A stretch of 64,000 nt of DNA, taken from Vulcanimicrobiota bacterium (GTDB taxonomy: Bacteria > Vulcanimicrobiota > Xenobia > Xenobiales > JADMJV01). The stretch spans positions 552,008 to 616,007 of the forward strand of contig JBFWNU010000001.1 of assembly GCA_050250895.1 (NCBI GenBank), read 5' to 3'. The position numbers were made by a program, and so were the translations under genes. Below are positions 1,094 to 21,164 of this stretch, piece by piece. Under the pieces are notes generated by a model, which was given only the letters and a program-made list of their open reading frames with translations, had not been told where the DNA came from and did not search any database. Numbering within the stretch: the stretch's first letter is position 1; every line of letters begins with the position of its first letter.

Positions 1094-1794
1094 GTTGGCT
1101 GCGGGCTACCGACCTGAGCTTTGCCTATCCCGATGGCCAGCGGGCCCTCGACCAGGTCTCGTTCGCACTCGCCAGCGGCGAAAAGGCTGTGCTACTTGGG
1201 CCCAACGGAGCCGGCAAGTCCACTCTCTTACTGCATCTCAACGGCATCCACCACGGCCAGGGACGGCTGGAAATCGGCCAGGTCGAGGTAGCTCGCCACA
1301 ACCTCGACCAGATCCGAGCCCGGGTGGGACTGGTCTTTCAGAACCCCGACGACCAGCTGTTTTGCCCTACCGTGGCGGAAGATGTGGCCTATGGCCCTCG
1401 CTATCAGGGCCTGACCGGAGCCGAACTTGAAGCCCGGGTCAAAGCAGCCCTCGAGCAGGTGGATCTGCTGGAAGCCGCCGACCGGTTTCCCCAGAACCTG
1501 AGCGGCGGAGAGAAAAAGAGAGCGGCCCTGGCCACCGTCCTGTCGATGCGTCCCGATTTGCTGGTGCTAGACGAGCCTACCGCCGGGCTGGATGCGCGCG
1601 CCCGGCGCAGCGTCATCGAGGTGCTCAAGGCTCTGGCTACCACCATGCTGGTGGCGACCCATGACCTGGAGCTAGCCAGGGAAATGTTTGAGCGGGGACT
1701 GATTCTCGACGGGGGAAAGCTGGTTTACGACGGACCCCTCGAGGCCGCCCTGGCCGACCGCGAACTGTTGCTACGCCACGGTCTAGTCGCTTGA
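1090..1794 (+). CDS. cbiO: ECF transporter ATPase CbiO/NikO
   Basis: Walker A GPNGAGKST, 'FQNPDDQLF', LSGGE, LDEP. GTG at 1090 overlaps the cbiQ TGA. Confidence 0.9.
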   Translation: MSWLRATDLSFAYPDGQRALDQVSFALASGEKAVLLGPNGAGKSTLLLHLNGIHHGQGRLEIGQVEVARHNLDQIRARVGLVFQNPDDQLFCPTVAEDVAYGPRYQGLTGAELEARVKAALEQVDLLEAADRFPQNLSGGEKKRAALATVLSMRPDLLVLDEPTAGLDARARRSVIEVLKALATTMLVATHDLELAREMFERGLILDGGKLVYDGPLEAALADRELLLRHGLVA

Positions 1795-2220
1795 GCTGCG
1801 GCGACCGCGCAGCAGACTCAAGCCGCCGAAGATACCGAAGAGAACGCTGATGCCGACCAGCAGGCGGGTGTGAGTGGCCACCAGCGGCTGCGAGAACGAC
1901 TTCACCACCTGGTGCTCGTCCACTTCGACCTCTACCGTGGCGCCATGCAAGCCATGGGTGGAATCGGCCTTGACCTTGACCGTCCATTGGCCGGGCTGGT
2001 CTGGCACGAACACGACCCGGCCATGAAAATCGGTGCGGCCAATGGCAAAGGGGTTGCCCTCGGCACCTCCGGGTGGGAAGACCTCGTATTCAGAATAGCT
2101 GGCTTCTTCATCGCCGAGCTGAACCGTGACCACCACCGCCTCGGCCTGGGTCACCTCGTGGTTCACCGTGTGGGCCAGAGCAAGAGTGGATAGCAGCAAA
2201 CAGATCGCCAGGACTCGCAT
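1783..2220 (-). CDS. Secreted/membrane-anchored nickel/cobalt transport accessory protein (CbiL/NikL-like)
   Basis: Signal peptide ending ALA-H, 'GRTD..G...F.PD.PG.W.V', His-rich 'HGLHG', C-terminal TM helix. Convergent with cbiMQO. Confidence 0.6.
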   Translation of the reverse strand: MRVLAICLLLSTLALAHTVNHEVTQAEAVVVTVQLGDEEASYSEYEVFPPGGAEGNPFAIGRTDFHGRVVFVPDQPGQWTVKVKADSTHGLHGATVEVEVDEHQVVKSFSQPLVATHTRLLVGISVLFGIFGGLSLLRGRRSSSD

Positions 2221-2275: not shown

Positions 2276-3463
2276 TTAGCGTCGGAACCTCTGGGGAGTT
2301 GCCAGCGCCCGCCGAATCTGGCGAAGCACCTCGGAGGACAGATCGGGTTCGACCACTTCCAAGCTGAATTCTTCCACCGAGAAACTCGGCTTCTCTTCAA
2401 CCACCAGCACACTGGTGTTGGAATGTCGGGCCAGGGCCATCAGTTGCTCGCGGTTCTCGGCCAGCAACACCCGGTAACCAGCCTCCTCCAGCTGGCGGTG
2501 AAGCACTCCGCCCAGCTGGCCCAGGAGCAAGATACACTCTTTGCCCCCCGGGGCGGCGGCGCTCCCGGCACGGGGCAAAACCAGGGTCAACGTGGTGCCC
2601 TGACCCGGGGCTGATTCGATTTCGATCTTGCCCCCCATACTACGAACCCAGCCATACACCCGGGCCAGGCCCAGACCGGGCTGCCCCAGGCGGGTGGTGT
2701 AGAACGGTTCGAACAGGTGCCGAGCCGTACTTCGATCCATGCCATGACCGCTATCCGAGACCGATAGGCGAAGCCAGCCGTCGGGAGAATCCTCGGCTTC
2801 TATCTGAAGCCAACCGCTCCCTGAGGCCATTGCCTCGAGCGAGTTCTGACAGATCTCTCGCAACATCTCTTCACAAACCGAGGACCGAGCCAACAACGTC
2901 AGGCTGGGCGGACACTTCGTCTCGCAACGGGTGCCGGGGGATCGCTCTTTCACCCAGCGGGCCAGGTTGCCCAGCAAAGGCACGACGGCCGTGCCCTCCA
3001 TCGCTTGATCGATGGCACCATAGAAAACCGAGAAGGCGTTGGCTCGGTCTTCGAGCTTGCGACAAGATTCCAGGATCGACTGCAGACCCTCGGTCACCTC
3101 GGGTTGATTACAATCCAGCAGGGCCAACTCGGCCTCGCCCTTGACCCCCGCCAATACGTTACGAAGGTCGTGAGCCACTCGGTCGGCCATGCGGCGCAGC
3201 GCCGCGAAGGCAGGCGCCTCGCGCCCTTCGGCCATCTGGTCGAGCAACTGCCGGCGAAACGTCTCGAGTTCTTCCGGCAAGGTGTCGCAGGCGGCCTGGT
3301 TCTGACGACGCACCTCTTCCAGCAGTTCGCCCCGCACCACCGACACCTCGCGGGGAGCCTCGATACCCAGCCGAACCTGATCGGCTCGGGACTCGAGCAC
3401 GGTGATGATGACATCGTCCCCCACTTTGAGGGATTGCTTCTTCTTGCGCGAGATTACGAGCAT
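2276..3463 (-). CDS. csrA: CsrA - histidine kinase - pseudo-receiver fusion protein
   Basis: aa 1-60 are CsrA (MLVISRK...VRLGIEAPREVSVVRGE...N55). Then H-box VAHDLRN, N-box QNSLEAM, G1 DSGHGM, F-box LFEPFYTT, G2 GLGL, and a degenerate REC domain. Lies directly after fliW. Confidence 0.85.
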   Translation of the reverse strand: MLVISRKKKQSLKVGDDVIITVLESRADQVRLGIEAPREVSVVRGELLEEVRRQNQAACDTLPEELETFRRQLLDQMAEGREAPAFAALRRMADRVAHDLRNVLAGVKGEAELALLDCNQPEVTEGLQSILESCRKLEDRANAFSVFYGAIDQAMEGTAVVPLLGNLARWVKERSPGTRCETKCPPSLTLLARSSVCEEMLREICQNSLEAMASGSGWLQIEAEDSPDGWLRLSVSDSGHGMDRSTARHLFEPFYTTRLGQPGLGLARVYGWVRSMGGKIEIESAPGQGTTLTLVLPRAGSAAAPGGKECILLLGQLGGVLHRQLEEAGYRVLLAENREQLMALARHSNTSVLVVEEKPSFSVEEFSLEVVEPDLSSEVLRQIRRALATPQRFRR

Positions 3464-3888
3464 GCTACCGGCCTCCTGGATAAGCTGTGACAGGTTCCGA
3501 ACCGAGTGTCGTCAAGTACGACCTGACCGCCCGTCCGGGTTCGCTGGTGCAATACCACCGGGGCCGCCAGATTCATGGTCCAGCCGTCCTGGTCGCAAGT
3601 CACCACGCAATAGATGGCCAGTTCGTCGCCCCGTTCCACTCGCAAAGCCTGCAGAAAGGCGCTGTCGAGATCGGGTTCATAGTCCGAGAAAAAGGTGAAC
3701 GGGTCGGCCAGAGCCAGGGCCAGGTCGGCCTGGTCCACCGACTGAAGCCAGACGAAGGGGCGATACTTGGGCATTTCCAAGAGCACGAACCGGCGACTTT
3801 CTTCGAGACCCACCAGGGGTCGGGTGAACTCGATCAAGCTGCTCTCTGGAACCTCTAACTGGCCGAATCTCAGGCTATCCAACTGCAT
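3454..3888 (-). CDS. fliW: Flagellar assembly factor FliW
   Basis: 'RFG...', 'F.WLQS', 'DPF.FF.DY', 'T.NLAAPVV', 'QVVL'. Conserved flgL-fliW-csrA order. Confidence 0.92.
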   Translation of the reverse strand: MQLDSLRFGQLEVPESSLIEFTRPLVGLEESRRFVLLEMPKYRPFVWLQSVDQADLALALADPFTFFSDYEPDLDSAFLQALRVERGDELAIYCVVTCDQDGWTMNLAAPVVLHQRTRTGGQVVLDDTRFGTCHSLSRRPVACS

Positions 3889-3909: not shown

Positions 3910-4809
3910 CTATCTAAGATAATTGACCAGACTCAGCTGAGACACTCGTGAGGCCACCTGCATCGTGGCCTGGACGGTGGTCTCGGCAGAGAGCATCTGG
4001 GTGATGGCGGTGGGCAGGTCGACTCCGCTCAAATCCTGCAGTTCCATGTTCAAGTTGATCAGCTTCTCGCCGGTGTGGGTCGACAGGCTCTCGAGATACT
4101 GACCGGCGCTGGCAGCCTCGGCTCGCCGAGTCAGCAAATTGTTCTCGATTTTCTCGAGCTTGTCGAGAAAGGGAGCGGCGTCGAAGTCTGGCTTTTGCAG
4201 GGCGTCGCGCAGCTCGATCACGGTCTGGAAGAAGTCTTCTCCCGACCCGCCCGAAACCGACTGCCCGTTGAGGCTGATGTTGAGGGTCTTGCCGTCGGGC
4301 AGGTTCAAAGGCGGAGAGCCTAGATCGCCTGCGTAATTCACCGAGGTGATTTTGCCCCCCGATTCGGTAGTCTGGAAAGGGGGAGTGCGGCTCTTGAAGC
4401 CGCTCAACAAGTAGCTGCCGTTGATCTCGCTGTTGCTCAAGTTGAGGGCCGACTGCAGGATGCTGTCGACCTCCTGAGCCAGCGACTCTCCCAACTGAGG
4501 TCCAGTGCTACCGTTGGCGGCTCGCTGGGTGATGGTGCGCAAGCTGCGCACTTTAGAGGTCAGGTCGCCCAGCATCTCGTCGACGTAGCGTAGAGAGCCG
4601 GCGCTTTCTGCGACCATGCCCTGATCGGTCTCTAGCCGCGTGATCGCCGCCTGCACTCGGGTCTTGCGGGCGTAGGCCGAGGGGTCCTCGCTGGGGCGGG
4701 TGAGCTTCTGGCCCGAGGCGATCTGTTCTTGCAGGCCGTTGAGACGGCTACGGGCCGATTCTAGATTGTTGAGGATGGCTCGCTGAAAGCGGGCATCGTT
4801 AGCACGCAT
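3910..4809 (-). CDS. flgL: Hook-associated protein FlgL
   Basis: 'IASGQKLTRPSEDP', 'YLLSG', C-terminal 'SLVNYLR'. Downstream of flgK. Confidence 0.9.
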   Translation of the reverse strand: MRANDARFQRAILNNLESARSRLNGLQEQIASGQKLTRPSEDPSAYARKTRVQAAITRLETDQGMVAESAGSLRYVDEMLGDLTSKVRSLRTITQRAANGSTGPQLGESLAQEVDSILQSALNLSNSEINGSYLLSGFKSRTPPFQTTESGGKITSVNYAGDLGSPPLNLPDGKTLNISLNGQSVSGGSGEDFFQTVIELRDALQKPDFDAAPFLDKLEKIENNLLTRRAEAASAGQYLESLSTHTGEKLINLNMELQDLSGVDLPTAITQMLSAETTVQATMQVASRVSQLSLVNYLR

Positions 4810-4810
4810 A

Positions 4811-6481
4811 CTATCTGGCTCCCATGCTGATCAAAGTCGACATGATTTCGTCGGCCACGGTGGCCACCCGAGCCGCGGCCGCAAACGATTGCTGGTAACG
4901 CTGCAGGTTGAGCAACTCCTCGTCGGAGTTGACTCCCGAGATCTGCTGGCGGCGCTCGTCGGCATCGGTTTCTAGCAGAGTGTTCCGTTGAGCCATCACC
5001 ATCTCGCGACTGCGAGCGGCTCCGGCCGAGGTGGCCAAATCGTCGATGGACTCTTGAAAAGTGCGGTCGCCACCCGAGCCGAAAGCGGCGCTATCGAGCT
5101 TGGAGGCCATCTGACGCAACATCCGACCGTCGCCAGGCACGGCTGGCGCAGACACGGCACCGGTGAGGCCGAGCACCTGCGAAAGGTTGCCGCCGAGATC
5201 GTTGACGGTGATACCAGGCGGACCGGCCATTGAGGGGTCGCGCTCGAGCACCACCCGACCACTGGGTGAGTCGAATCGAGCTTTGACTCCGGCGGCGCTG
5301 AGGTTGCTCAGAATCTGGTCGGTGGATTGGCTATCATCCCAGCTGACGGCGATTCCGTTGATTTCGATGGTGCCAGAGGCGGTGGCCGGGGTATTGAGGT
5401 TGGCCGCCTGGTTGACCAGGCTGTCGCCGGCAGTGAAGCTAGCGTTGCCCACCCCGCTGGTGCCCTCGACTCGGGCCAGGGCTCCGGCGATGGCCCGGGG
5501 ATCGGTGAGGGCCAGGCGGAGGTCGCCAGCCCCGCTGCCCTGCAAGAGGTCACGCCCGGCCACGCCGTCAAGACCGTAGCCGAGTTGGTGAACGCTATTG
5601 AGCTGATCTTTGAAGCTGTTGGCGCTGGCATCGAGGGCGGTGCGAAAGCCGGCCAATTCGGTCTGGGCGAAATTCAGGTTGGCGGCCAGCGAGCCGCCGC
5701 GGGGGCTCAAGCTTTGGCCGGTCTGGGTGCGGAGGCCATTGGTGGCGTCCCACTGCAGCTGGTCGAGCTGGACGCCATAGAGAAGCTGCTTGCCATCGAG
5801 ATAGACCGAGGTGGCCCCGCCGTGAGATTCGCGCACTTGCACGTTGACCAGGCCGCTCAATTCGTCGAGCAGCACGTCGCGCCGGTCGAGCAGCACGTTC
5901 TTGCCGGCGCTGCCGTCGAGAGGCGGCAGTTGCTTATTGATGCCCTGCAGCTCGACCAAAATCTGGTTGGCCCGGTCGGTCAGATCGCCGACGCGAGCGC
6001 GGGCCTCGTCGCCCAGCTGGTCAAGCGAGTTCGAGGTGTCCTGAAAGGTCCGCGTGAATCCGTCGAGCTTGCTCAACAGGTCGCTGCGTAAAGCTATATC
6101 GTCGGGATGGGTGGCCACCTCGAGCAGGGCCGCTCGGACGTCCTGTGCCTGGCTGCTCAGACCCTCGGAATTGTTGAAGATCGACTCCAGGCGACTGGTC
6201 AGGGGGTCAAGACTGCGCGAGGCCTCGGCGTTGCGATGGTGAAGGCGATAGGCAGTATCCAGTAAGCCATCGCGAACTCGCTCGAAGCCCTCGACCTGCA
6301 CGCCCAGCCCGTCGTGGTGCTGTTGGAAGGTCGAAATCGCCGGTCCGACATTGCTGACCACAGCCCTCTGCCGGCTGTAGCCGGGCAGATCGACACCTTC
6401 CAGGTTGCGACCGGTGAGCTCGATCTGGAGCTGACTCGAGCGCAGCAGGCTGGAGGCGATATTTAGTGAGTTGAGAGCCAT
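4811..6481 (-). CDS. flgK: Hook-associated protein FlgK
   Basis: 'PGYSRQR', 'LLDRRD.LLDELS', 'ISGVNSDEE..NL..YQ..F.AAARV'. Start placed at MALNSLNIA. Confidence 0.9.
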   Translation of the reverse strand: MALNSLNIASSLLRSSQLQIELTGRNLEGVDLPGYSRQRAVVSNVGPAISTFQQHHDGLGVQVEGFERVRDGLLDTAYRLHHRNAEASRSLDPLTSRLESIFNNSEGLSSQAQDVRAALLEVATHPDDIALRSDLLSKLDGFTRTFQDTSNSLDQLGDEARARVGDLTDRANQILVELQGINKQLPPLDGSAGKNVLLDRRDVLLDELSGLVNVQVRESHGGATSVYLDGKQLLYGVQLDQLQWDATNGLRTQTGQSLSPRGGSLAANLNFAQTELAGFRTALDASANSFKDQLNSVHQLGYGLDGVAGRDLLQGSGAGDLRLALTDPRAIAGALARVEGTSGVGNASFTAGDSLVNQAANLNTPATASGTIEINGIAVSWDDSQSTDQILSNLSAAGVKARFDSPSGRVVLERDPSMAGPPGITVNDLGGNLSQVLGLTGAVSAPAVPGDGRMLRQMASKLDSAAFGSGGDRTFQESIDDLATSAGAARSREMVMAQRNTLLETDADERRQQISGVNSDEELLNLQRYQQSFAAAARVATVADEIMSTLISMGAR

Positions 6482-6735
6482 CTCGAAGAGTGGGCCGCCT
6501 TTTGCGAATAGGTCGTCCTGACGGGTCCACCGAGGGTGTCCAGAAGATCCCGGTTGAGTGCCCACACGTGGCGAAGCTCGTCAGGGTCGAGTTGGTGACG
6601 GGGCAGCTCTTCGAGCAAGGCTTGCTTCTCGAACAGGATCTCCCCCAACACTTCAGGTCGCGGATCGAGCAGGCACTCGATCTCTAGAGTCATCAGCTCG
6701 GCCAGTCGGGCGAGCAAACCAGCTTCAGATGACAT
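6463..6735 (-). CDS. flgN: Probable FlgN-like export chaperone
   Basis: Short helical protein between flgM and flgK, with 'EK..LL' and 'LN..LL...TY' features typical of FlgN. Confidence 0.55.
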   Translation of the reverse strand: MSSEAGLLARLAELMTLEIECLLDPRPEVLGEILFEKQALLEELPRHQLDPDELRHVWALNRDLLDTLGGPVRTTYSQKAAHSSRWLSTH

Positions 6736-7009
6736 CGCTGAGCTTGTCGGCCAGCTGGTCGAGGTCGACCTTGTAGTCGCCCGAGGCGATGCGGGACTTG
6801 AAGCTCTCGACCACATCGGTGCGAACGTCGGGCGAGTCCTGGACCAGCTTCGAGAGTTCGCTCATCTCTTTGGCGGAAGTCGACACCTCGACGCTGCTGG
6901 AGCCGCCCTTCGAGCACGAAGAGGCGCAGCTAGTCGAGGCCGGGGTCCGGACCTCGCTGACCCCGTTGATTTTGCTGGGAATGTTGTTTGAACTACCTGA
7001 TACAGTCAT
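6725..7009 (-). CDS. flgM: Anti-sigma28 factor FlgM
   Basis: 'VEVS..A', 'DVR.D.V...K..IASGDYKVD...LADKL'. Confidence 0.9.
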   Translation of the reverse strand: MTVSGSSNNIPSKINGVSEVRTPASTSCASSCSKGGSSSVEVSTSAKEMSELSKLVQDSPDVRTDVVESFKSRIASGDYKVDLDQLADKLSDVI

Positions 7010-7094: not shown

Positions 7095-7982
7095 CTATGA
7101 GGCTCGGGAGTTAGCACCCACACCAACGTAGTTGCCGATCTCACAGAACTCGTCCTGAGCGGCCGCAACGGCCCGTTCGACTTCCTCGACGGTCAAGTCG
7201 AGCAACTCGAGATAGAGGGAGTTGACCTCCTGCCCCTCCCAGGCTGAACAGGCCAGGGCGACCAGGGCGGCGGGCTTCTCGTGCTTGCCGGCCTTGTTCG
7301 GGCTATGGTGATAGCGCACGCACTCGATCAGCATTTCGGGAAGCTTCCACGCCTCGCAGGTGGTGGCCCCAATCTCGGCGTGGTCGGTTCCCAGAAACTC
7401 GCGCTCGGCCGCCAGGGGGTCCTCGGCGTCGGCCAGCCTGGCCATCAACATCGTGTGCTCGCGGGGAGCATACTTCCGCAGGACCGAGTAGCCGACATCA
7501 TGCAGCATCCCGGCCACGAAGAGTTCCTCGGGACAGCCCTGGCGGGCGAGTCTGGCCAGGTTCTTGGCTACCAGACCGGTGCCCATGGCTCGCTTCCAAT
7601 GGACGGCCTGGTCGTTGCCGGTACCGGCGAAGAACGAGTCGTACGAGGCCAGACAGAAACACAAGCTGCGGACCACGTTGAGTCCCAGCATGCTGACCGC
7701 CTGGGTCACCGACATCACCCGCTGGGTGACGCCGTAGTAGGCCGAGTTCACCATTCTCAATACCCGAATGGAGAGTGACTGGTCGGTCGAAATGACCTTG
7801 CCCAGGTCGCGGGCCGAGACGAACGGCGAGTTCAACAGGCTCAGCAGTTTGCGATACACAAACGGCATCGTATCCAGATCGCTGAGTCGCGAGTGGATCT
7901 TTTGTTTGAGTGCCTCGGTGTCGAGATTCTCGATTTCCACGGGTTGCTCGGCAGCGGCTCTGCCGTAGGTAATCCTCTTCAC
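7095..7982 (-). CDS. HDOD-domain protein
   Basis: 'D..LS.RVLRMVNSAYYG', 'AVSMLG', 'AGMLHDVG', 'E...LG.DHAEIG....W.LP', 'YHH.P'. Confidence 0.9.
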   Translation of the reverse strand: MKRITYGRAAAEQPVEIENLDTEALKQKIHSRLSDLDTMPFVYRKLLSLLNSPFVSARDLGKVISTDQSLSIRVLRMVNSAYYGVTQRVMSVTQAVSMLGLNVVRSLCFCLASYDSFFAGTGNDQAVHWKRAMGTGLVAKNLARLARQGCPEELFVAGMLHDVGYSVLRKYAPREHTMLMARLADAEDPLAAEREFLGTDHAEIGATTCEAWKLPEMLIECVRYHHSPNKAGKHEKPAALVALACSAWEGQEVNSLYLELLDLTVEEVERAVAAAQDEFCEIGNYVGVGANSRAS

Positions 7983-9109
7983 GCTGGAACCTCCTGGGGT
8001 TTTGAGTCTTGACTGGTTTGATAGCGACCGTTGCCAGAATTAAAGGGCTCGCCCTCACGCGAATATCTCTCCTTGATGTCGAGAATCTCGGGCAAAACCT
8101 GCATAAAGATGTTCACCAGCCTGGGATCGAACTGGGTCCCAGAACAGCGTTGGATCTCGGCGACCGCGTCTTCGACCGTCCAGGCCTGCTTGTAGGGTCG
8201 CTCCGAAGTAAGCGCGTCGAAAACGTCGCACACGGTGGAGATCCTGGCTTCGAGAGGAATCTGCTCGCCCCGTAAGCCGTCAGGATAGCCCTTGCCGTCC
8301 CAACGCTCGTGGTGCCAGCGAGCCACTCGCTCGGCCATCTTCATCAGCTCGGAACTCCCACCCCGCATGAGCTCGGCGCCGATCTTGGCGTGGCTTTTCA
8401 TGATCTCCCACTCCTCGGGGGTGAGCTTGCCCTTCTTGAGCAGCACGTGGTCGGGAATACCGATCTTGCCGACATCGTGCAGGGCGGCCGCGTGCAGCAG
8501 CTGCTCGCGCTGCTCGATGGGCATTCCCATGGCTCGGGCCACGACCACGGCGTAGCGGCTCATCCGGCTGATGTGCAGACCCGTTTCGTCGTCGCGATAC
8601 TCGGCGGCCATGCCCAGGCGCCTTACCATCTCGAAATGAGCCTCTTGGAGAGCCAGAGTGCGCTCGCGCACCCGGTTCTCCAAATCCTTGTTCTGAGCAT
8701 AAAGTTTGCGATGCAGCAAACGAACCTCGAGCAGATTCTCTACTCGGCAAAAGAGTTCGAAGCGGTCAAAAGGCTTGCAGACGAAGTCGCGAGCCCCCAA
8801 ACCCAGGGCGCGACGACGGGTTTCGGGATTGGTGTCCCCGGTCAGCACCAGCACCGGCAAATAGGTGCCGTCGTGAAACTCTTCGGTCTCTAAGATAGTG
8901 AAGCCGTCCAGGACCGGCATGTTGAGGTCCAGTATCACCAGATCGGGCCTGAACTCTCGAAAGGCTTTCTCGAAGTGAAGCGGATTGCTGATCCCTTTGA
9001 GGTCCTGATAACCCGCTTTGCCGAGCAAGCGCTCGACGATCCTGACGTTAATCTCCTCGTCGTCGACGATGAGAATCCGTGCTGTTTTTCGCTCTTGATC
9101 CGTGATCAC
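7979..9109 (-). CDS. Response regulator with HD-GYP c-di-GMP phosphodiesterase domain (RpfG-like)
   Basis: Intact REC domain (VDD, LDLNMP, LTG, KPF), plus LHDVGKIG, HHERWDGKGYP and DALTSERPYK. Confidence 0.95.
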   Translation of the reverse strand: MITDQERKTARILIVDDEEINVRIVERLLGKAGYQDLKGISNPLHFEKAFREFRPDLVILDLNMPVLDGFTILETEEFHDGTYLPVLVLTGDTNPETRRRALGLGARDFVCKPFDRFELFCRVENLLEVRLLHRKLYAQNKDLENRVRERTLALQEAHFEMVRRLGMAAEYRDDETGLHISRMSRYAVVVARAMGMPIEQREQLLHAAALHDVGKIGIPDHVLLKKGKLTPEEWEIMKSHAKIGAELMRGGSSELMKMAERVARWHHERWDGKGYPDGLRGEQIPLEARISTVCDVFDALTSERPYKQAWTVEDAVAEIQRCSGTQFDPRLVNIFMQVLPEILDIKERYSREGEPFNSGNGRYQTSQDSKPQEVPA

Positions 9110-19168: not shown

Positions 19169-19245
19169 CCCCAACCGGAAGGAGTTTCTCCCGGGACCTG
19201 CTCTCGCAAAATTCGCCGTCCCGCGATCTTCGGGCTTTCGAGCCC

Positions 19246-19302
19246 CGGGCGACAAGGATGTCGCTCGCTCACAGAGAGCGTGAGGAAGCACTCAAGGAGG
19301 AG
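19246..19302 (+). promoter_or_regulatory. CsrA-binding sites in the flagellin 5' leader
   Basis: Hairpin CGGGCGACA-AGGA-TGTCGCTCG containing ACAAGGAUGU, plus further GGA motifs at TGAGGAAG and the RBS CAAGGAGG. Confidence 0.7.
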
Positions 19303-19310
19303 TAACAAAC

Positions 19311-21164
19311 ATGGGTTTCAGAATCAACCAGAACATCGGCGCGATGGTCGCGCTGAACAACTTGCAGCAGAACGACATGTCGATCAGTAAATCGATCGAA
19401 CGTCTCTCGACCGGCTTGCGCATCGTTCGCGGCGCCGACGACCCGTCTGGACTGGTCATCTCGGAGCGCTTTCGCGCCCAGGTGGAAGGTCTCGGACAGG
19501 CGGTCAGCAACGCCAAAGACGGTATCAACATGGTTCAGACTGCGGAAGGTGCGCTCGACGAGGTCAGCCAGGTGCTGCGCAATATGCGCAACGTGGCGGT
19601 TCACGCGGCCAACACCGGCCCCAACGACGCAGCCACCCTCGAAGCTGACCAGAACCAGATGCGTGAAGCCATCAAGACCCTGGACCGCATCGCCAGCCAG
19701 ACCCAATTCGGTGCCAAGAAGGTGCTCGATGGTTCGGCCGGCGTAACGGGCACGGTCACCAACGCCAACGTCAGGTTCGTATCGGGAACCACCAAGACTG
19801 CCGATGGCACCTACGCGGTGAATATCACCACCGCCGCCGCCAAGGGCAAGGTGACCTCGAACGCCAACGGTGGCGCGGCCGTGGCTCGCGGCACTCAGAA
19901 CACCACCGGGGCTAACGCCACCGACGGCAACGCTCTGACCGGTGCCGAGACCCTCACCATCACGGGAGCCATGTCCGGTGGCGCTAACATCGCCATCGCT
20001 CTGACCACCGGCGACGACGTCGACGACATGATCGACAAGATCAACCAGAACGCCGATGTCAAGTCGGCTGGTCTGACCGCCTCCAACGTGGGTGGCAAGA
20101 TCCAGCTGGCCTCTGATCGACTCGGAGCGGGAACCGCCGCCGAGCTCGACATGACCATCACCAACGCCAACGGCGGGACGGCCGTGAGTGGCCTGGCCGC
20201 TGCTGGCGCCAACACCTACTCCCAAGACGATGCCACCGGCGCGACCAAGCTGCGCAATGACGAGTTGCTGACCTTCTCGAACGGCACCAACACCGTCAAC
20301 GTCTCTTTGACCGCCGGTATGACCACTGCAGCCGCGGTGAGCGCCATCAATACCGCCCTCGACAACGCGGGCATCGGCGTCACGGCCGGCTTCGACAGCA
20401 CCGACGCGGTGTTTACCCTCGAGAACGATGCTTACGGCTCGAGCAGCACCGTGTCCAACACCTTCTCGTCGAACTTGTCGGGCGCTAACAGCACCGGACT
20501 AGCCGGCGCAGCGGGCACCAGCTACAACATCGCTGGCTCCGGCGCGGCCCTTTCGGGCGCGGACGGTTCTGACGGTGCCGACGTAGCCGGGACCATCGGC
20601 GGCTTTGCGGCTACCGGTTCGGGCCAGTTCCTGACCGGCAACGCAGGCACCGACGTAGAAGGACTCGAGATCAAAGTCAGCGGTGGTGGCACCGGCGCTC
20701 ACGGAACGGTGACCGCCGCCAACAACTCGCTGACCTTCCAAATCGGCGCCTTCGCCGACCAGACCGCCACCCTCGCCATCGGAGCGATGACCTCCACCAG
20801 TCTCGGAACCGACGCCGCTGGCGTCAGCATCATGAGTTCGGTGAGCGTGTCTAACATCGATGTCTCGTCGGGTGACGGCCAGGGCGCGCAGGATGCCATC
20901 AAGGTCCTCGACGCCGCCATCTCCCAGGTCTCCAAGCTCCGCTCTCAGATCGGTTCGTTCCAAAAGGACATCCTCGAGAGCACCGTGCGGACCCTGGGCG
21001 TGGCCAAGCAGAACCTGGCTTCCAGCGAATCGAACATCCGCGACGCTGACTTTGCGGCCGAGATGATGACCTTCTCTCGCTCGCAGATCCTCAGCCAGAC
21101 CGGTATGTCGATGTTGACCCAGGCCAACCAGGCCGGCCAGTCCGTCCTGAGTCTGTTCCGATAA
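19311..21164 (+). CDS. fliC: Flagellin
   Basis: 'RINQN..A', 'ERLSTGLRI...ADD', 'FQIGA', 'S.IRDADFA.E...QILSQ...QANQ'. Confidence 0.98.
   Translation: MGFRINQNIGAMVALNNLQQNDMSISKSIERLSTGLRIVRGADDPSGLVISERFRAQVEGLGQAVSNAKDGINMVQTAEGALDEVSQVLRNMRNVAVHAANTGPNDAATLEADQNQMREAIKTLDRIASQTQFGAKKVLDGSAGVTGTVTNANVRFVSGTTKTADGTYAVNITTAAAKGKVTSNANGGAAVARGTQNTTGANATDGNALTGAETLTITGAMSGGANIAIALTTGDDVDDMIDKINQNADVKSAGLTASNVGGKIQLASDRLGAGTAAELDMTITNANGGTAVSGLAAAGANTYSQDDATGATKLRNDELLTFSNGTNTVNVSLTAGMTTAAAVSAINTALDNAGIGVTAGFDSTDAVFTLENDAYGSSSTVSNTFSSNLSGANSTGLAGAAGTSYNIAGSGAALSGADGSDGADVAGTIGGFAATGSGQFLTGNAGTDVEGLEIKVSGGGTGAHGTVTAANNSLTFQIGAFADQTATLAIGAMTSTSLGTDAAGVSIMSSVSVSNIDVSSGDGQGAQDAIKVLDAAISQVSKLRSQIGSFQKDILESTVRTLGVAKQNLASSESNIRDADFAAEMMTFSRSQILSQTGMSMLTQANQAGQSVLSLFR

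Follow-up and report, generated by a model that had tools for sequence, protein, structure and literature searches.

The stretch of DNA considered here, termed the window, comprises 64,000 nucleotides (nt) of contig JBFWNU010000001.1 of a Vulcanimicrobiota bacterium (assembly GCA_050250895.1, positions 552,008 to 616,007 of the forward strand), and our subject is a gene near its left end in which csrA continues in frame into a histidine kinase. CsrA is among the best-studied global translational regulators, and the usual picture of it is that of a small, free-standing dimer under the control of sponge RNAs or FliW. Positions 2276 to 3463 of the window, on the minus strand, form a single uninterrupted open reading frame (ORF) encoding 395 amino acids (aa), with the N-terminus MLVISRKKKQ; the host is a soil-type bacterium, and the frame contains no internal stops. 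The gene lies directly behind fliW (3454 to 3888, minus strand; 144 aa), the product of which matches PF02623 with 114.1 bits against a cut-off of 25. The two genes overlap by 10 nt, with the TAA of fliW at 3454-3456 and the ATG of csrA-kinase at 3461-3463, and the motif AGGAGG lies inside the 3' end of fliW, about 8 nt 5' of the csrA-kinase ATG. Upstream of fliW, in the same orientation, are flgL (3910 to 4809, minus strand; Pfam domains Flagellin_N and Flagellin_C) and flgK (4811 to 6565, minus strand; Pfam domains FlgK_D1 and Flg_bbr_C). An original prediction, made from the letters of the sequence alone, had placed a CsrA-kinase fusion at the canonical flgK-flgL-fliW-csrA position with a 10-nt overlap to fliW, and its coordinates, motifs and overlap all proved correct; as it had stated, csrA reads on in frame into a kinase core, within one 395-aa ORF that has CsrA, HisKA and HATPase_c matches.

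The N-terminal part of the protein is a CsrA RNA-binding domain (residues 1-59; 3287 to 3463, minus strand) that includes a helix at residues 45-59 and the residue N55. PF02599 (CsrA) matches residues 1-52 with 71.7 bits against a cut-off of 27, and eight scanned relatives all score above that cut-off (60.6-70.9 bits). A linker follows (residues 60-84; 3212 to 3286, minus strand), with a helix predicted by AlphaFold2 (AF2) at residues 63-78 at a predicted local distance difference test (pLDDT) value of 62-77, and leads into a DHp (HisKA) domain (residues 85-147; 3023 to 3211, minus strand), which serves for dimerization and as phospho-acceptor and carries His98 (codon 3170-3172) within RVAHDLRNVL. 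The ATP-binding, catalytic HATPase_c domain (residues 148-300; 2564 to 3022, minus strand) matches PF02518 over residues 198-298 with 75.9 bits against 26.4 and contains the ATP boxes: N207 (N box), D237, G239 and G241 (G1 box), the F-box region LFEPFYTT, and G263 and G265 (G2 box). The H-D-x-x-N motif is linked to both kinase and phosphatase activity, and the kinase is, judged by its sequence, apparently active. The fusion protein has no transmembrane domain and no other sensor domain.

The remainder of the protein (residues 301-395, 95 aa, plus the stop; 2276 to 2563, minus strand) is a C-terminal tail that resembles an alpha/beta remnant of a receiver without an acidic pocket. No Pfam match to Response_reg (PF00072) is obtained in residues 300-395, even at E <= 10. 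Alignment of the tail with a receiver profile by hhalign covers 39 columns, from beta1 to the start of alpha2 (receiver positions 7-48; probability 84.7%, E 6.6e-6), and in this alignment G-Q replaces the acidic pair and the phospho-acceptor is unaligned. The absence of a Pfam receiver match, together with a partial alignment that lacks the acceptor, rules out a normal receiver, and on this alignment the tail is read as what is left of a receiver, corresponding to about its first third. The 'degenerate receiver' that had been proposed thus holds for the start of the domain, which is homologous over the 39 columns, and fails for the rest, there being neither a Pfam-recognizable receiver nor a phospho-acceptor. 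All aligned family members but one (10 of 11) have a tail, of variable length: it is absent in the protein P0129, several members have only about 40 residues of it, and its core, I-L-x-G...L-E-x-x-G-Y-R-V-L-L-A-E, is conserved.

An AF2 model of the full fusion, built from a 57-row alignment, has a mean pLDDT of 86.5. The model comprises the CsrA strands, the helices at 45-59 and 63-78, DHp helices at 84-117 and 121-147, an ATP-binding domain at 157-298, and a tail with the order beta-alpha-beta-alpha-beta-beta-alpha. The best Foldseek matches to the model are the kinase cores of ZraS, HK853, CckA and ShkA; DivL is also matched, and 324 columns align to full-length ShkA (6qrj). The pseudo-receiver of ShkA binds cyclic di-GMP (c-di-GMP).

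The same architecture occurs in independent sequences. The protein P0002, from a separate public metagenome-assembled genome (candidate Eremiobacterota bacterium), has 395 aa, is 88% identical, has the same three Pfam domains and is identical in all 63 of 63 DHp residues; it is publicly annotated merely as "carbon storage regulator", a label under which the fusion architecture is easily overlooked. A genome of another genus in the same family (G009; same record as L064) encodes a 350-aa version behind fliW and flgL, and a near-identical copy of that version, also adjacent to fliW, is found on an independent metagenome contig (L144). An exhaustive phmmer search of 1.84 billion cluster representatives yielded 14 proteins at E <= 1e-30, and eight of these besides the query (P0121-P0127 and P0129; 310-382 aa, 28-43% identity) align from residue 1 to the end of the kinase.

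Conservation is concentrated at functional positions. In the kinase part H98, N102, N207, D237, G239, G241, G263 and G265 do not vary among the 11 aligned members, and in the CsrA part the same is true of L2, V3, R6, R44, E46 and N55; H-D/E/Q-x-x-N is kept across the family, and the F-box residues are not invariant. The RNA-contact residues of CsrA in beta1 and beta5 known from mutagenesis of the E. coli protein (L2, L4/I4, R6, R7/K7, V40, V42, R44 and I47/L47) are likewise retained, with L2, R6 and R44 invariant and I4, K/R7, V/I40, V/I42 and L/I47 conservatively kept in all 11. The predicted retention of R44, N55, H98 and the ATP boxes therefore extends, the F-box residues excepted, to every aligned member, and none of the 11 has a stop after the CsrA domain or has lost H98 or the ATP-binding boxes. 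Mean pairwise identity among the 11 is 57% for CsrA, 18% for the linker, 35% for DHp, 30% for the ATP-binding domain and 30% for the tail, such that CsrA is the most conserved part of the fusion family; within the linker, L66 is kept in 10 of 11 members. Residue invariance despite such divergence indicates a maintained, catalytically constrained protein and not a read-through accident. That the union of csrA with a kinase gene lying downstream results from a lost stop, a frameshift or a chimera of the assembly has a negligible probability, being refuted by the same junction in P0002, in a second genus, on a metagenome contig and in eight cluster representatives, and by a frame free of stops; the question that attached to the junction at 3150-3300 is answered by the same in-frame junction in P0002, G009 and L144, and an artefact is excluded. 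The sole PF02599 match in the window's genome (9.5 Mb, 17 contigs, 99.6% complete) is this protein. The results confirm that the fusion is real and conserved and that it is the genome's only CsrA.

The fusion is rare. In the family to which the window's genome (G000) belongs, fliW is present in 5 of 16 genomes and csrA in the same five; a genome of the same genus that is 98% complete (G001) has neither. All five CsrAs of the family are extended at the C-terminus, by the kinase in G000 and G009, by a glyoxalase-like module in G006 and G008, and by a Pro-rich tail in G007. At the level of the phylum, CsrA is found in 304 of 401 sampled genomes, and among 49 frames from outside the family that were read from the CsrA start, the 48 complete ones have 55-113 aa and the other is truncated at a contig end (these lengths come from 59 loci, five of which, L003-L007, were missed by the pattern and stand outside the counts; two rows are from unpublished genomes and leave the range unchanged). 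The 395 aa of the fusion protein thus compare with about 55-115 aa for single-domain CsrA. Long 'open_frame_aa' values in the phylum scan were rejected as fusions, since the frames measure 55-113 aa once counted from the start of CsrA. Among 185,579 species genomes other than the window's own, a pattern scan picked up 555 CsrA relatives, of which only the record of G009 is a fusion, and a pattern scan of metagenomes returned at least 559, with L144 the only fusion among the matches listed; both scans used CsrA patterns from this family and would overlook fusions whose CsrA is divergent. The CsrA frames of other loci lie within 50-127 aa in 123 of 125 cases. Three candidates were rejected: L067 (Nitriliruptoraceae) and L151 proved to be PAS/GAF kinases of the ordinary type that lack CsrA, and L084 has a short CsrA. 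A word-index search for CsrA fusions of 217-692 aa, an insensitive search that missed the representatives found by phmmer, returned only P0001 and P0002 among 36 candidates. The search for related fusions and for fliW synteny that the original prediction had called for therefore yields rare relatives, with fliW adjoining the fusion in G009 and L144.

The sister forms of CsrA in the family differ in what follows the domain. In G006 (L011, 1501-1953, plus strand) and G008 (L012, 1156-1653, minus strand), CsrA stands behind fliW and is fused to a module of about 80 aa with weak Pfam matches to glyoxalase/bleomycin-resistance proteins (E 7.8e-4 and 5.8e-3). The AF2 model of this module is poor (mean pLDDT 55.7, from two sequences), its best Foldseek match is at 3.9e-3, with none at E <= 0.001, and the glyoxalase-like assignment is tentative. 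Downstream of these csrA genes come a PilZ-like gene and a gene for a hybrid PAS kinase of about 1000 aa. In G007 (L013, 1501-1872, plus strand), CsrA has 124 aa and ends in a Pro-rich tail of about 65 aa without a domain match, and the next gene reads like fliN/fliY. In G018, of the same order, the csrA frame runs off the end of contig C170 (L010), and contig C101 opens with the latter half of a CsrA domain; these pieces are probably one gene split by an assembly break, with a remaining frame too short for a kinase.

The origin of the kinase part was addressed with a maximum-likelihood tree of 84 kinase cores, in which the 72 rows from outside the family are the top matches to the fusion plus three neighbor kinases, and from which rows with a profile match below 150 positions were excluded. 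The 11 fusions all group in a single clade together with two proteins that lack CsrA, with a Shimodaira-Hasegawa-like approximate likelihood ratio test (SH-aLRT) support of 95; a single clade of fused kinase cores indicates that the fusion is old and has been maintained. One of the CsrA-less proteins, P0183, a kinase plus tail encoded in G011 (L229, 1091-2110, minus strand), is nested in the fused clade as sister to the fused protein P0126 with support 99. Its gene stands in a non-flagellar context, beside what appear from sequence to be an acyl-CoA-dehydrogenase-like gene and a membrane-protein gene, and in G011, a genome of the same family that is 75% complete, neither fliW nor csrA was found. 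The position of P0183 suggests loss of a CsrA domain. P0150, a soluble CsrA-less kinase of 355 aa, has a like tail. The nearest non-fused relatives of the kinase are hybrid kinases that carry receivers, and no paralogue in the window's own genome exceeds 38% identity. The PAS hybrid kinases encoded two genes after csrA in G006 and G008 were rejected as the source of the kinase, as they lie far from the fused clade in the tree. So a short soluble kinase-plus-tail module became joined to CsrA a single time and the union has been retained, and the module can also exist without CsrA.

The relation of the fusion to FliW was assessed by comparison with a solved complex and by modeling. N55 of B. subtilis CsrA is required for antagonism by FliW, a protein that switches between flagellin and CsrA. 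Fusion residues 2-74 align to residues 3-75 of the CsrA chain of 5DMB, the closest solved CsrA by sequence. Because that chain is bound to FliW, the alignment indicates that the linker helix corresponds to the C-terminal extension of FliW-regulated CsrAs, that is, that the old FliW-binding extension has become an interdomain linker. A model of two copies of fusion residues 1-160 with FliW scores 0.71, 0.67 and 0.71, compared with 0.00 for the best of three controls; 58 of 80 solved complexes attain the mark for such models, as do 2 of 110 mismatched pairs, a calibration that holds only roughly here, where custom alignments were used. The runs have at least 75% of contacts in common, with a partner pLDDT of at least 80. 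The modeled FliW contacts span fusion residues 38-76, with N55, V51 and L66 the most certain and with linker residues 61-76 inside the interface, and N55, V51 and L66 face an invariant region of the modeled FliW (G27, N106, P110 and Q122). The model docks FliW against the CsrA helix and against the linker that leads into the DHp helix, the geometry that gating of the kinase by FliW would need.

A putative RNA target of the CsrA domain lies elsewhere in the window. The leader of the flagellin gene (19225 to 19325, plus strand) contains a hairpin with ACAAGGATGT at 19252-19261 and a GGA in the Shine-Dalgarno region, where CAAGGAGGA stands at the ribosome-binding site; the CsrA RNA consensus is RUACARGGAUGU. 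The leader folds with -35.7 kcal/mol (z -2.6), and ACAAGGATGT occurs once in the 64-kb window, compared with 0.13 occurrences expected. The gene that follows (19311 to 21164, plus strand) encodes a long flagellin of 617 aa. The ACAAGGATGT hairpin motif is also found before flagellin in G009 and G006, in a related form in G008, and in a less canonical form in G007. By its sequence features the flagellin leader is likely an RNA target of the CsrA domain, and a single CsrA in the genome together with the leader sites argues that the fused CsrA still binds RNA.

The gene string to which the fusion belongs begins, at its head, with a gene for a REC-HD-GYP protein (7979 to 9109, minus strand), which overlaps a HDOD gene (7095 to 7982, minus strand), followed by flgM (6725 to 7009, minus strand), all three assigned by Pfam. 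In the family loci compared, flgL and flgK lie upstream of fliW-csrA in five of five, flgM and the HDOD gene are conserved beside flgK, with the HDOD gene at this position in four of five, and the REC-HD-GYP gene is not conserved at this position. The placement of fliW directly upstream of csrA in a late flagellar operon is common to G000, to G009 and L144, and to the three sister genomes with other CsrA forms.

Taken together, the sequence features and the modeled interface suggest an undescribed route from the status of flagellum assembly to a phosphorylation signal. The reading that we tentatively favor, and that falls somewhat short of being probable, is that the protein would be a soluble homodimeric CsrA-histidine kinase, with CsrA in the N-terminal input slot, in which release of FliW or occupancy by RNA would shift the activity of the kinase. 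In the flagellin leader, the GGA hairpin and the Shine-Dalgarno sites would most likely still be bound by the CsrA part, which would also have kept its binding to FliW; FliW would grip the helix at 45-59 (N55) and the linker helix at 63-76 that feeds into DHp helix 1 with His98. After export of flagellin, FliW would be free, as in the partner switch of B. subtilis, and would clamp the junction of CsrA and DHp; with FliW held by flagellin, RNA would occupy the CsrA dimer, possibly to the opposite effect. Either clamping by FliW or occupancy by RNA would shift the kinase/phosphatase balance of the DHp-CA (catalytic and ATP-binding) core, and the status of filament assembly would reach both the translation of flagellin and some stand-alone response regulator. 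The architecture, with its conservation, synteny and single copy, is observed and the FliW interface is modeled; that the fused CsrA still binds RNA, that the kinase is active, which way the signal runs and what its output is are inferred. A more specific version, which we regard as doubtful, is a one-polypeptide converter in which competition between flagellin mRNA and FliW for occupancy would gate the kinase and would broadcast hook completion and the onset of flagellin export as a His-Asp phosphorylation signal, for example through the REC-HD-GYP protein to c-di-GMP turnover. The interpretation originally given to the fusion, a flagellin-sensing phosphorelay, is partly supported: the architecture, the synteny and the modeled interface fit, and the receiver is only a remnant. 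The word 'phosphorelay' itself is unsupported, because no partner response regulator was identified and the REC-HD-GYP gene is not conserved beside the second fusion.

Several results weigh against gating of the kinase by FliW or RNA. At the level of classification, the CsrA part falls below the NCBIfam equivalog cut-offs (65.9 vs. 73 bits for NF002469 and 59.8 vs. 70.1 bits for TIGR00202), such that its membership in CsrA is a match at domain level only, not at equivalog level, and the HisKA match over residues 89-138 has 26.2 bits, slightly below the Pfam cut-off of 26.9 (18.6-26.9 bits in relatives). At the level of the interface, the custom alignments make the calibration of the complex model rough, a like complex is already solved (5DMB), so that a pass of the model attests likeness and not binding, and the linker that would transmit the signal is poorly conserved. 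At the level of the circuit, the gene context of fusions covers 2 of the 11 aligned sequences (G000 and G009) plus L144, and adjacency of the fusion to fliW rests on these; the sister genomes replace the kinase by other tails, which indicates that the FliW-CsrA circuit can do without the kinase; and the occurrence of the kinase plus tail without CsrA, in P0183 and P0150, indicates that the kinase is able to function on a different input or without any. No cognate regulator was found and no regulator gene is adjacent to the fusion, and the REC-HD-GYP gene of the string is absent beside the fusion of G009.

Some of these results bear equally on other explanations. The poorly conserved linker and the kinase module that occurs alone would both be expected if the modules were independent and merely tethered, with fusion providing co-expression, fixed stoichiometry, stable dimerization or co-localization of a kinase of the late-flagellar regulon with CsrA; three unrelated C-terminal additions on CsrA in one family, which make the C-terminus seem permissive to accretion, point the same way. 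We assign a low probability to such tethering without allostery, as the fusion has been maintained in one clade despite divergence to 28-43% identity, linker residue L66 is nearly invariant, and the FliW-binding segment lies exactly at the junction, so that binding without an effect on the DHp helices would be surprising. It is also unlikely, on our estimate, that information flows in the reverse direction, with the kinase and its receiver-remnant tail as input and CsrA as output, and with nucleotide state, autophosphorylation, or a ligand or partner reshaping the dimer; RNA binding or sensitivity to FliW would then be tuned, placing flagellin translation under a second signal such as c-di-GMP. 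Conservation of the tail and its core in 10 of 11 members would suit such a role, as would the 324 columns aligned to ShkA, with its c-di-GMP-binding pseudo-receiver, and the c-di-GMP-related genes nearby (HDOD in four of five loci, REC-HD-GYP in G000, PilZ after csrA in G008); receiver-CsrA fusions with CsrA as output have, moreover, long been catalogued (accessible part of PMC2222644). However, P0129 has no tail and several members keep only about 40 residues of it, the kinase clade contains members without CsrA, and the fact that H-D-x-x-N and every ATP box are fully conserved speaks for phosphotransfer to a partner over a purely internal switch. The same conservation bears on whether the kinase part phosphorylates at all. 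A non-phosphorylating kinase part, acting as a dimeric platform or as a surface for FliW or flagellin, would fit the marginal HisKA scores of the fusion and its relatives and a receiver that has already decayed, but eight catalytic residues invariant in 11 of 11 members at about 30-35% domain identity are the signature of catalytic constraint, which makes a pseudokinase scaffold highly improbable.

Comparison with known systems separates what is familiar in the fusion from what is new. Like the Hag-FliW-CsrA switch (B. subtilis; 5DMB, from Geobacillus thermodenitrificans), the locus has the order flgK-flgL-fliW-csrA with translationally coupled fliW and csrA, keeps N55 and R44 with a modeled FliW interface centered on N55, and is accompanied by a flagellin leader with a GGA hairpin and a GGA in the ribosome-binding site. 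It differs in that the protein has 395 aa instead of about 70-80, in that the FliW-binding extension runs into a DHp-CA core and a receiver remnant, and in that the genome has no free CsrA. With soluble HisKA and hybrid kinases (CckA/ShkA-like, PAS-HK-REC) the fusion shares H-D-x-x-N and the N, G1, F and G2 boxes, its best sequence and fold matches (ZraS, KinB, DivL, CckA, ShkA and HK853), and a tail homologous to the start of a receiver; its input, however, is an RNA-binding, partner-switching domain, not PAS, GAF or HAMP, and because its receiver lacks the acidic pocket and phospho-acceptor it is not a working hybrid kinase. Response regulators with CsrA output domains, catalogued in the accessible part of PMC2222644, and listed as a combination also in that of a 2025 review (PMC12471899), resemble the fusion in that CsrA is physically joined to two-component signaling; in the fusion, by contrast, CsrA is N-terminal to a kinase, stands beside fliW and is accompanied by no working receiver. 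No report of a CsrA-kinase fusion was found in the literature searched, supplementary domain tables lying outside that search, in agreement with the original prediction, which knew of no characterized example; in the accessible part of a 2026 survey of natural CsrA variation (PMC13443453) the word 'kinase' occurs 0 times. The fusion, which combines known kinds in a new way, can be viewed as a histidine kinase whose input domain is without precedent or, just as well, as a CsrA whose output is a kinase, and it is rare, old and conserved. It joins post-transcriptional control and two-component signaling in one protein, provides a compact, soluble test case for whether the DHp helices allow a kinase to be gated by an antagonist protein or by an mRNA, and bears on the coupling of flagellar assembly checkpoints to other behavior. 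If gating by FliW or RNA is true, the protein would be the first histidine kinase with a CsrA domain as input, and possibly the first gated by an mRNA.

Two further frames lie near the genes described. A 145-aa protein with a signal-peptide-like start is encoded 55 nt past the stop of the fusion (1783-2220, minus strand); it has only a sub-threshold Pfam match and has no counterpart next to the fusion of G009. Between flgM and flgK, at the site expected for flgN, is a 117-aa frame (6463-6816, minus strand) without a Pfam match; this frame overlaps the listed GTG start of flgK, so that the true start of flgK is probably further downstream.

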